A stretch of 64,000 nt of DNA from NCBI GenBank assembly GCA_013265495.1, contig MU058059.1:1488001-1552000 (forward strand), in the 5' to 3' direction. Position 1 is the first letter of the stretch. Every line of letters begins with the position of its first letter. This stretch comes from Vicugna vicugna. Taxonomy: Eukaryota. Positions 53,348-56,644 of the stretch are shown in pieces. The position numbers were made by a program, and so were the translations under genes. Under the pieces are notes generated by a model that had not been told where the DNA came from, ran no database searches, and worked only from the letters and a program-made list of their open reading frames with translations.

Positions 53348-54516
53348 TTTACCGTATTTACTGTAGGCTCTCTTACAGACCCTTTTTCAAGTTAAGTAGT
53401 TCCATTCTCTTTTGTTACTAAGTGTTTTTTGTCTCTCTGTTTTTACATAAACAACTTTGGATATTATCTGATGTCCATTCAAGGTCTGTTGAGATAGTTA
53501 ATTTTTTTTTCTTTTTCATAATGACTTATTTTACAGAACTTTTTCTTTTATTTCTGGGAGGATCTGAAACATACTTATTTAAAAGTCATTTTGATGTGGT
53601 TCTCTTATTTGTGCTTTATTACTGGTAGATTCATCTTCCAGTCTGGGGTCGTTGGCGGTTTTTGTCGGTGTTAAGCATCCTCAGAGACTCTGAATGAGAT
53701 CTCTCTCCTCCTCTTCTCACTGCCCTCCCTCTTTTGCCTCTGCCTGAGCCTCACTCCTCATCCAGATTCAGGTCTCCTCTTGGCCTTCCATCCTACAGTG
53801 ATGTGAGGAGACTGCAGACACAGTCATCGGGGCCAAGAGCAACTTGGCGCAGGTCCCAGGCCTTCCTCCTCCTGGCCACCCTGCAAAAATGCAGCAGTAG
53901 CTTTTTCCCGGCTCATTACGGGCTAGGAGAGCTCATCCAGCCCCAGGTTTAGAGACTGACTCTGGCTCCAGACCTCTGCCAGGCATGAGATGTTTCTTTT
54001 TCGACAGAAATGCAACTGCCTTTCATCTCTGATAATTTCCAACCCAGAAACTCCCAGGTTTGGTTCTGGCATCATCCCACCATGTGCGTGTGTCTGTCTA
54101 AAACATAGAAATGACTGCCTTATCATGTTAATTGGTTTCAGGGGCTTTGTTTGGATCAGGATGGGTCCTTCAAAGCTGAGCTCAGTGACTTTCCCAAGTT
54201 CCCATTTCTCAGGTGACTTTACTTCCCACAGTTCTTGGCAGAGGAGAAGTGCTCGAAAAAAAATTTCTGGCGTTGAAAGCACTTCGTCACCTTCAGGGAG
54301 AGGCTCCTTGCAGAAATATCCTGCGGGAGGAGATTCACTGGATACAGGCTTGACCTGGATGAACTTTAGTATGGGTCCACCTGCAAGTGTATTACTTTTA
54401 GTGCTTCTGAAGTTCATGTTAACTTTAAGCCACAGTTTTCCTTCTGTTTATTTATTTTTTCACTCTAGCATCCCTATGAATGTAAATTTGATGACACACA
54501 AAGGTTGAGGGGCAGG

Positions 54517-54795
54517 TCAAAGTTCATAATTTGCTTGCATGGTGTTGGTGTGGAAAATGCAGGTACAAATCTCACAATCAGGGCATATAATCGTGCTGAA
54601 TTCTTCAGTTATTAACAAGCACAGTTCACAAAAAACATGTCCACACTGAAGTTCATGATGGTGAGCGGAAGCTCCGGGCGCCCTTCCTCCACACCAGGCG
54701 CACAGGGCCTCCCTGGTGCCCTGGGCTTGGGCCTGCCTCTCCACCTGCCCGCAGAAAGACAGGGCACCCCGAGCCCTCAACGCCTCAGCCGCCAT
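54517..54795 (-). CDS. Putative 92-aa RING-only microprotein (RNF17-derived 75 aa + 17 novel aa); expression unknown
   Basis: Open frame, strong Kozak aaggcgATGG, C-x2-C...C-x-H-x2-C-x2-C...C-x2-C all retained, TGA at 54519-54517. Confidence 0.4.
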   Translation of the reverse strand: [92 protein letters not shown]

Positions 54796-54805
54796 CGCCT
54801 TTCTG
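54571..54805 (-). pseudogene. RNF17: Processed (intronless) partial copy of RNF17: short 5'UTR plus codons 1-75 (RING finger)
   Basis: MAAEA...CAWC...[31 protein letters not shown] is colinear without gaps with recalled human RNF17 (MAAEAS...CTRC...[31 protein letters not shown]). A GC-rich to AT-rich switch at ~54666 marks the expected exon1/exon2 junction, with no intron. Clear homology stops at CPDCE. Confidence 0.88.
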
Positions 54806-55518
54806 TGTCAAGGATCGCAAGATTTCATCCCTGTTTACGTGCATGGAGTGGCTCTGAAGAGGGGTGGGCACATTCAAACCACTGCCAGAAAAAACAATTA
54901 CCAACTGCTCATAAATACTTGAGGGTGACCAGGGTGATACCAGAGGAGTTGCCTTGTCTACAATTCAACCCTAAGGAGGCTACTTAATACACCCTATGTA
55001 TGTTTTCATTATTATCTTCAGATTTTCCTGTCTGCCTTCACTAATCACTGTTATGGTAAAATATATGCAAGTAACCAGCCTATTCCTCTGGGGTTATCAT
55101 CCACTCTTTAATCATCATCTCACATCCCAGGCTAAAGTAACCTCCCCTCCTGCCCACTTCTTACATCCTTTTACTTTAGTTCTTATCTCAGTTTAGTGCC
55201 AAGTCTTTGGACTCTGACATTATAAAATGACCCAGAGAGGCTATTAAATAGAGCTCTAGACATGCAACTTGATAACCTCCATCTTCAACAACAACAAAAA
55301 CAAAAAATCTGATTACCCTTTTTAATCCTGTTATCTTACCTTGGGTTCCAACTCAACACATAAATCTTGACACTCACGCTGGTTTCTATTATAGAGTTCC
55401 AATTCATAGGCCAGTCCTCTGTTCTCATCTTTCTTCCACAGGCTTTAATTTAAGCCTGGAAATGAACCACCACCAAGATAAATGAACAGCGAACATGAAT
55501 CAAAAGGTGGGGCTTCTT

Positions 55519-55629
55519 GGGGGAGGGTACAGCTCAGAGGTAGAGCATATGCTTAGCATGCACAAGGTCCTGGGTTCAATCCCCTGTACTTCCATTAAAT
55601 AAACCTAGTTACCCACCCCACAAAAAAAG
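55519..55629 (+). mobile_element. tRNA-Ala-derived camelid SINE (Vic-1-like)
   Basis: A box tacagctcagagg, B box ggttcaatccc, tail aataaacctagttacc. TSD aaaggtggg(g/a)cttct at 55503-55517 and 55630-55644. Confidence 0.92.
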
Positions 55630-56644
55630 AAAGGTGGGACTTCTGCTTTGTCACTAGCAGTCTTAATAACCAAACTAAACTTTTCATGTGTACAACTACC
55701 AATAAACCAGAGCCTGGGTGTTGGTTTGTGTCCACTGAATTGCTTCACTGTCTATGCAGTGGGTAGGCAAGGTCTTACCCTCCACTTACATTTTGCTGCA
55801 CTTGTACTATATCCCAATAGTATTTTCAAATTTTTTGTGCAGTAATCTTCATCAGAGGCTTCGGTCAACCTTTATCCATGTGGCTCTTCTTTATCGTTGT
55901 TCCATTCCATTTTAAGCTCAGAGGGGAACATTTTAAGTAGCAAATGATGCAAATTACAGTTGCACAATATTGGCTTTTTGTCATACTGTCAATGCCACCT
56001 TTTGTGCGTTTTTCTAAGTATTTCACTCACTCTTAATATAATCTCTCACCACACTGAGTAATTAGTATCATTCTTCTCAGTTTATAAATGGAAAAATAAT
56101 TATTATTTCTATGGTTTTTCTTTTTTTTCCTACAGTATCATTAATTGGGTTTCACTGATTTCTGACAACCCAGCCTTGAGAACATCCGATCTTAAATAAC
56201 CGGATATCTGATAGGAAAACATTTAGTGGATTTTTTTTTTGTAGAACAACAAATAAGGTTATTATAAAGCAAAACTTAATACTATATATTATTTTTCACC
56301 AAGTGTGAGTCTAATGTTTGGAAAAGAATTTATTAAACTACGTACAAACTCCTTTCTAATAATAAGTATATACATCCTTTACCTTGAAAAAGATTAACTG
56401 ATTTCATTTTCTTTTTGAAATAAAACAAATTTAAGTGCAGAGCAAACATCAGCCTGTCTCCCTCTTTTCACGACTTTAATGCCCTTATCCAAAACCTCCT
56501 GCTCAGATGAGCCCTGTTTCACAAATGGAGGTTACTTCCCCAACCCAGGAGTGGGCAACCGCGGGGCATTTTCCTGGAACATTGGTTTGTCTATAGCTTT
56601 GGCAGGTGGGAAAATTAAATTATTTTGCTGATGATTAAAAAGAT

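Follow-up and report, generated by a model that had tools for sequence, protein, structure and literature searches.

We report that the minus-strand segment 54450..54799 of a 64,000-nucleotide stretch of Vicugna vicugna DNA (contig MU058059.1, positions 1,488,001 to 1,552,000; the window) is a processed copy of a short RNF17 splice form in which exons 1 and 2 are followed by a cryptic exon from intron 2 of the parent gene (exon 2b). The 350-base copy harbors an open reading frame (ORF) with all eight zinc ligands of a RING motif. In our assessment it is nonetheless quite probable that the locus is an ordinary processed pseudogene, old and fixed, whose short ORF has survived by chance.

Results

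An intact ORF with a RING motif

The ORF extends from ATG to TGA over 92 codons on the minus strand (window 54517..54795, stop included) and, as judged from its translation and from Pfam, consists of a RING C3HC4 motif followed by a 17-residue tail. Its start codon resides in the context ggcgATGG, with G at both −3 and +4, and an in-frame TGA is located five codons upstream of the retrocopy ATG. A 92-codon minus-strand ORF with a good start context had been proposed in the original prediction and is borne out, the more distant end given there (54805) merely adding upstream context. Likewise, all eight of the proposed RING zinc ligands can be read in the translation (C32, C35, C51, H53, C56, C59, C71 and C74), and their spacing, C-x2-C-x15-C-x-H-x2-C-x2-C-x11-C-x2-C, is that of a canonical C3HC4 RING. 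Across 32 aligned sequences, seven of the ligand columns are invariant and H53 nearly so.

The RING models of Pfam all scored below their cut-offs on the ORF, zf-RING_UBOX being the best (19.3 bits; cut-off 25.2). On RNF17 proteins this model falls below the cut-off as well, with 19.5 bits for the alpaca RNF17-like protein P0001, 17.0 bits for Camelus ferus and 17.1 bits for hippopotamus, and human RNF17 reaches at most 13.2 bits, on zf-RING_5 (cut-off 27.9). Because the alpaca parent and the copy score alike, the sub-threshold RING score of the copy is not a sign of decay. An AlphaFold2 model of the ORF product, computed from the 32-sequence alignment, had a mean pLDDT of 55.2, with values of ~59-74 for residues 31-80. 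When this low-confidence model was compared with the PDB using Foldseek, the best matches were RING domains (TRIM2, TRIM32), all of them weak (E ≥ 0.049, TM ≤ 0.46), and none was returned at E ≤ 0.001. The predicted structure is consistent with a RING without proving it.

Parent gene and copied splice form

Searching the ORF against proteins of 162-2000 aa identified alpaca and Camelus ferus RNF17 as the top matches (76% identity over 96% of the ORF); the 93 matches in this size range were all RNF17 or RNF17-like, with the exception of one ‘tudor domain-containing protein 1’ and one ‘hypothetical protein’. A DNA search of the genome's own assembly (2.03 Gb in 12405 contigs, with the window as contig C1337), using window 54400-54900 as the query, recovered one locus besides the window itself, on the minus strand of contig C9623, where the match is split into three collinear pieces. 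These correspond to exon 1 (C9623:2404623-2404754, 92% identity), exon 2 (C9623:2402181-2402274, 95%) and exon 2b (C9623:2401766-2401888, 95%). In a protein search with alpaca P0001, later RNF17 exons were found on the same contig, down to position 2381906, and the search revealed no third RNF17 locus in this genome; the C9623 locus is therefore the parent gene. Canonical RNF17 exon 3 is situated at ~C9623:2399186-2399341, ~2.4 kb downstream of the exon 2b stretch. The parental exons match the alpaca protein nearly residue for residue and show the alpaca state wherever alpaca and C. ferus differ, which marks the genome as that of an alpaca-like (Lamini) camelid.

Exon borders were read directly from the parental DNA and fixed by script. 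The 130 coding nt of exon 1 are followed by a 2345-nt GT-AG intron (GTGAGG...CTGTAG). Between exon 2, which is 95 nt long, and exon 2b lies a 294-nt intron with canonical GT-AG borders (GTAAGT...TAATATTCCTTTCAG, ending in TTTCAG). Both introns are gone to the base from the window copy, which aligns without gaps to the joined exons 1, 2 and 2b. The RNF17 exon borders that had been proposed near c.130 and c.225 are both exact, and so is the loss of intron 1 at ~54666 from what had been proposed to be a retroposed, spliced RNF17 5′ fragment.

The whole retrocopy (54450..54799, minus strand) comprises 4 nt of 5′ UTR and exons 1, 2 and 2b up to the T that follows an A-run. Counted from the ATG, 24 of 346 positions deviate from the spliced parent, an overall divergence of 7%. 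As had been claimed, no indels separate the two, here over 346 nt and with a parent from the same genome. The exon-1 part (c.-4 to c.130; window 54666..54799) matches C9623:2404621-2404754 with 12 differences over the 130 coding nt. The exon-2 part (c.131 to c.225; window 54571..54665), which contributes RING ligands 3 to 8, matches C9623:2402181-2402275 with six differences in 95 nt. Finally, the exon-2b part (window 54450..54570) provides codons 76-92, the stop codon and another 70 nt, and matches C9623:2401766-2401886 with six differences in 121 nt (5%). Similarity to the parent is confined to this segment, starting 4 nt before the ATG and ending after the A-run, with no homology in the flanks or to the promoter.

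Given that a cryptic exon in intron 2 of RNF17 supplied codons 76-92 and the 70 nt beyond, the copied RNA was a short alternative transcript of this gene. Two elements of the original prediction are revised by this result. The ORF is not ‘chimeric’: its 17-codon tail, the stop and a further 70 nt all stem from the RNF17 locus (115 of 121 nt identical), and no part of it was supplied by the insertion site. Nor does the similarity break exactly at the end of exon 2, as RNF17 homology runs 121 nt beyond codon 75, to window 54450.

In the present-day parent, the frame through exons 1, 2 and 2b predicts a RING-only protein of 110 aa. No annotated protein with the exon 2b tail was found among proteins of 50-161 aa and 162-2000 aa, and the junction of exon 2 with exon 2b had 0 matches when metagenome contigs were scanned for it. 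The parental acceptor of exon 2b (exon at C9623:2401766-2401886) is canonical and preceded by a polypyrimidine tract. We also considered, and rejected, an origin of exon 2b by duplication of canonical exon 3, as 983 of 1000 shuffles aligned equally well; the protein similarity that carries the tblastn match to residue 85 was likewise dismissed as weak and due to chance.

The 3′ end and the insertion

Reading the sequence and its alignment, the copy terminates in an A-rich stretch of 14 nt (A6 T A3 T A3; window 54447..54460, minus strand). The corresponding genomic position of the parent carries ten consecutive A and then a T. None of 13 poly(A) hexamers scanned for in the parent occurs in the 76 nt ending at this A-run, and neither AATAAA nor ATTAAA is present in the 300 nt after it. 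Possibly, the internal A-run of a longer RNA served as the priming site for reverse transcription; alternatively, a weak polyadenylation site may have been used. A candidate target-site duplication, consisting of ACAGAA and, after a one-base indel, GG, is shared between the 5′ side (54798..54806) and the 3′ side (54440..54447) of the copy, both read on the minus strand in the same flank test; it is not significant, since an equally good or better alignment was obtained for 627 of 5000 flank pairs drawn at random from the window.

Mammalian retrocopies are generally made by the LINE-1 machinery. The starting RNA here was an RNF17 transcript joining exon 1, exon 2 and the cryptic exon of intron 2. 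In the scenario that we propose, the LINE-1 machinery would have reverse-transcribed it, priming on or beside the A-run, and inserted the product on another contig. The copy arrived with 4 nt of 5′ UTR and no promoter, and drift since insertion would account for the 24 substitutions relative to the parent, many of them at CpGs, and no indels. The RING-only 92-codon ORF corresponds to what the splice form encoded, possibly shortened by one nonsense change. Its survival is within the range of chance, and transcription of the copy would be incidental at most.

Substitution pattern and neutrality

Over the 75 RING-bearing codons, copy and parent are separated by 12 non-synonymous and six synonymous differences, with 63 of 75 residues identical. 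Pairwise dN was 0.073 and dS 0.124, resulting in an omega of 0.59 (binomial test against the site ratio, p = 0.40; 18 changes and hence very little power), about the value expected for a neutral copy compared with a weakly to moderately constrained parent. The dN/dS comparison, which had been suggested as a check, is thus not distinguishable from 1 and lends no support to function.

Exon 1 contains 15 CpGs in the parent and eight in the copy, of which seven are common to both. In a count over 350 positions with 28 differences (four of them past the end of homology), ten differences fall in parental CpG dinucleotides. The loss of CpGs in exon 1 is the signature of methylated, non-promoter DNA. 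The CpG persistence initially noted for the GC-rich first part of the copy holds insofar as seven of the parent's 15 exon-1 CpGs are retained, but about half have been lost.

In a neutral simulation on the parental 225 nt (20000 trials), the frame and the eight ligands survived in 27, 17, 11 and 7% of cases at 9, 12, 15 and 18 changes, respectively. As 7-27% of simulated copies retain both frame and ligands, the intact RING ORF is unremarkable under neutrality.

Translating both sequences, the TGA stop of the retrocopy (54517..54519, minus strand) is a TGC in the parent (c.279 C>A), where the exon-2b frame continues for another 18 codons to a TGA that the copy has, too. Judged from these two sequences, either the copy would have gained a nonsense change at c.279 or the parent would have lost a stop.

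Polarity of the changes and age of the copy

To polarize the 12 amino-acid differences between copy and parent, the first 75 residues were aligned with the RNF17 proteins of alpaca, C. ferus and 23 non-camelid species. At five sites the copy has the commonest outgroup residue, placing the change on the parental line: A at site 11 (10/23 outgroups), L at site 12 (11/23), G at site 26 (19/23), L at site 58 (23/23) and I at site 62 (15/23). The change maps to the copy's line at sites 14 and 23, where the parent's residue is found in 14/23 and 15/23 outgroups, and at sites 34 (R, 15/23), 44 (G, 23/23), 54 (A, 18/23) and 66 (Y, 18/23). The G at site 10 of the copy occurs in 0/23 outgroups and is unique to it. 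In sum, the line of the copy accumulated about seven amino-acid changes and that of the parent about five.

The derived state at positions 11, 12, 26 and 62 is common to alpaca and C. ferus RNF17, and these four parental changes therefore predate the alpaca/camel divergence. By parsimony, this is suggestive of a copy older than the split between Camelini and Lamini (camel/llama), but suggestive only; the change at position 12 is a CpG transition, for which an origin in the copy is just as possible. At commonly assumed mammalian rates, an age before the split is compatible with the divergence of 5% in exon 2b and 7% overall. Given the 7% divergence and the four ancestral residues lost in both alpaca and camel RNF17, the earlier description of the locus as a possibly ‘young’ pseudogene is doubtful.

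One of the polarized positions also bears on RNF17 itself. Codon 58, within C-E-R-C, encodes R in the parent of this genome and in alpaca P0001, and L in C. ferus, the retrocopy and all 23 non-camelid mammals. R58 represents a change particular to this lineage, at a RING position that is otherwise invariant.

Presence in sequencing runs

An index of sequencing runs was queried with 65 sampled 31-mer words of window 54300-55000. Sixteen DNA-type runs from four organisms and seven studies (including one, X3, of unstated kind) contained 0.92-0.97 of the words. The insertion is fixed or common among these close relatives. Two RNA-seq runs of a single study, labelled reproductive system (X17 and X18), contained 0.32 and 0.29 of the words, and two further runs of unstated kind 0.12 and 0.11. 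Because just 27 of the 671 31-mers of this region are also present in the parent, whether unspliced or spliced, a word share of ~0.3 cannot come from it. RNA or contaminating DNA from this locus, be it from the copy or its flanks and from either strand, is present in those two libraries.

Discussion

Pseudogene or gene

That the segment arose through an RNA is hardly in dispute: a DNA-level duplicate, or contamination of the assembly with cDNA, has a negligible chance of being correct. We found no evidence in favor of either, and two introns have been removed exactly, the flanks share no homology with the parent, a divergence of 7% rules out fresh cDNA, and the stretch is present together with its flanks in the 16 DNA runs from seven studies. 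The more consequential alternative is a working RING-only retrogene, whose 92-aa product in germ cells or the reproductive tract would function either as a small E3-like module or as a decoy that binds the partners of the N-terminal part of RNF17. A constrained gene would look much like what is seen, with an open frame, eight of eight ligands, no indels in 346 nt, a good start context and a RING score equal to that of the parent. The copy is carried by all 16 high-share DNA runs from four organisms, as expected of something fixed or common, and the two RNA runs hold ~30% of its words, beyond what the parent can supply. If the copy is old yet still open, the intact frame becomes somewhat more notable; moreover, with 18 changes the omega test is weak, and the difference at c.279 may be a stop loss of the parent. 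Against this reading, omega does not differ from 1, the otherwise invariant G44 has been replaced along with the conserved A54, Y66 and R34, and about half of the exon-1 CpGs have disappeared, as expected of methylated non-promoter DNA. The copy carries just 4 nt of parental sequence before its ATG and no parental promoter, the region upstream shows no evident promoter either, the frame closes 18 codons earlier than that of parental exon 2b, and chance alone preserves frame and ligands in 7-27% of simulations. Low-level transcription in testis is common for dead retrocopies, which we count against the retrogene as well. Searches of a 5.8-billion-protein set gave no match to the ORF closer than 76% among proteins of 50-161 aa or 162-2000 aa, and in the smaller size class the sole match was a canonical RNF17 N-terminal fragment (53%). 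On balance, a functional retrogene strikes us as unlikely, and the RING-only function envisaged in the original prediction is not supported, as omega does not differ from 1, the copy brought no promoter and no annotated protein matches the ORF.

Alternatively, the copy might act at the RNA level, being transcribed, perhaps antisense from a host transcript, and acting on RNF17 mRNA through small RNAs or as an antisense partner (93% identity). Words of this locus do occur in RNA runs, a CpG island at 47.0-48.5 kb of the window could drive antisense transcription on the plus strand, and the parent is described as a germ-cell gene (PMC10359003). On the other hand, only 27 of 671 31-mers are identical to the parent, and the idea is otherwise a generic one; we hold such a role to be very improbable. 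All things considered, we favor the processed pseudogene, with the neutrality of the copy inferred from the substitution pattern; an undecayed pseudogene was also the alternative offered in the original prediction.

Somewhat less probable than a working retrogene in general is its most elaborate version, in which a RING-only splice form of RNF17 would have been captured before the camel/llama split and the open, fixed copy, transcribed in reproductive tissue, would, as a small RING protein, compete in germ granules for the partners that bind the N-terminus of full-length RNF17. RNF17 restrains piRNA ping-pong. If such competition were real, the copy would be a camelid lineage-specific modulator of the piRNA pathway. 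The copy would merit interest as a lineage-specific germ-line gene only if it were shown to be transcribed, translated and under constraint.

Comparison with known systems

RNF17 (TDRD4), a testis-specific RNA-binding granule protein, is described as occurring in a large and a small isoform (PMC10359003). The retrocopy resembles this parent in having 75 collinear codons at its start, an identical RING ligand pattern and a tail that derives from RNF17's own intron 2. It differs in having no Tudor domains, no promoter and no introns, and in covering 346 nt as compared to coding sequence for ~1600 aa. With processed pseudogenes it shares the absence of introns, a spliced parent elsewhere, the missing parental promoter, an A-rich end, drift and CpG decay. 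Unlike the typical case, however, its source is not the main mRNA but a rare short splice form with a cryptic intronic exon, the parent has a genomic A-run where the copy has its A-tail, and a target-site duplication is not demonstrable. TRIM5-CypA is an example of a chimeric or domain-only retrogene. As in that type, a retroposed fragment encodes a single domain; in contrast, no host exon is fused to the RNF17 fragment, and the selection test is not significant.

Within the library searched, no paper pairs RNF17 with retrocopies, and the papers returned for RNF17 and ‘retrogene’ deal with other subjects according to their titles and the beginnings of their abstracts. As a processed pseudogene, the locus is of minor importance and should be annotated as an RNF17 retrocopy, its 92-aa ORF not to be called a gene without expression data. 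The copy does constitute a fossil record, documenting that RNF17 has produced a transcript joining exon 1, exon 2 and a cryptic exon, for which the splice sites in the parent are canonical still. In addition, it retains residues since changed in alpaca and camel RNF17, which helps to reconstruct the fast-evolving RNF17 N-terminus in camelids.

Genomic surroundings

From 44 kb onward, the window contains a single CpG island, at 47.0-48.5 kb (GC 0.71-0.80). Long open frames cross it in several frames, ATG-started ORFs among them, but they have no Pfam match and their translations look non-coding; the island is probably the promoter or non-coding first exon of some gene. Because it lies downstream in the orientation of the copy, it cannot drive sense transcription of the latter, but it could give rise to antisense read-through of the copy on the plus strand. 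Directly upstream of the copy, 700 nt are single-copy, with no repeat able to lend a promoter.

Among 18 long ORFs of the window, none matches a Pfam family above cut-off (Importin_rep_3 scored 16.6 bits, below its cut-off of 26.9). Immediately downstream of the copy, window 53923-54508 contains two overlapping frames on opposite strands, 174 and 182 codons long from stop to stop. DNA and protein searches revealed neither a Pfam match nor a second genomic copy of these frames, and the minus-strand frame had no homologue among proteins of 95-305 aa; both are probably open by chance. On the other side of the copy, a short interspersed repeat of ~110-130 bp is located at ~55504-55632, for which a first look at the genome yielded 4750 candidates, with scored copies being 80-95% identical.
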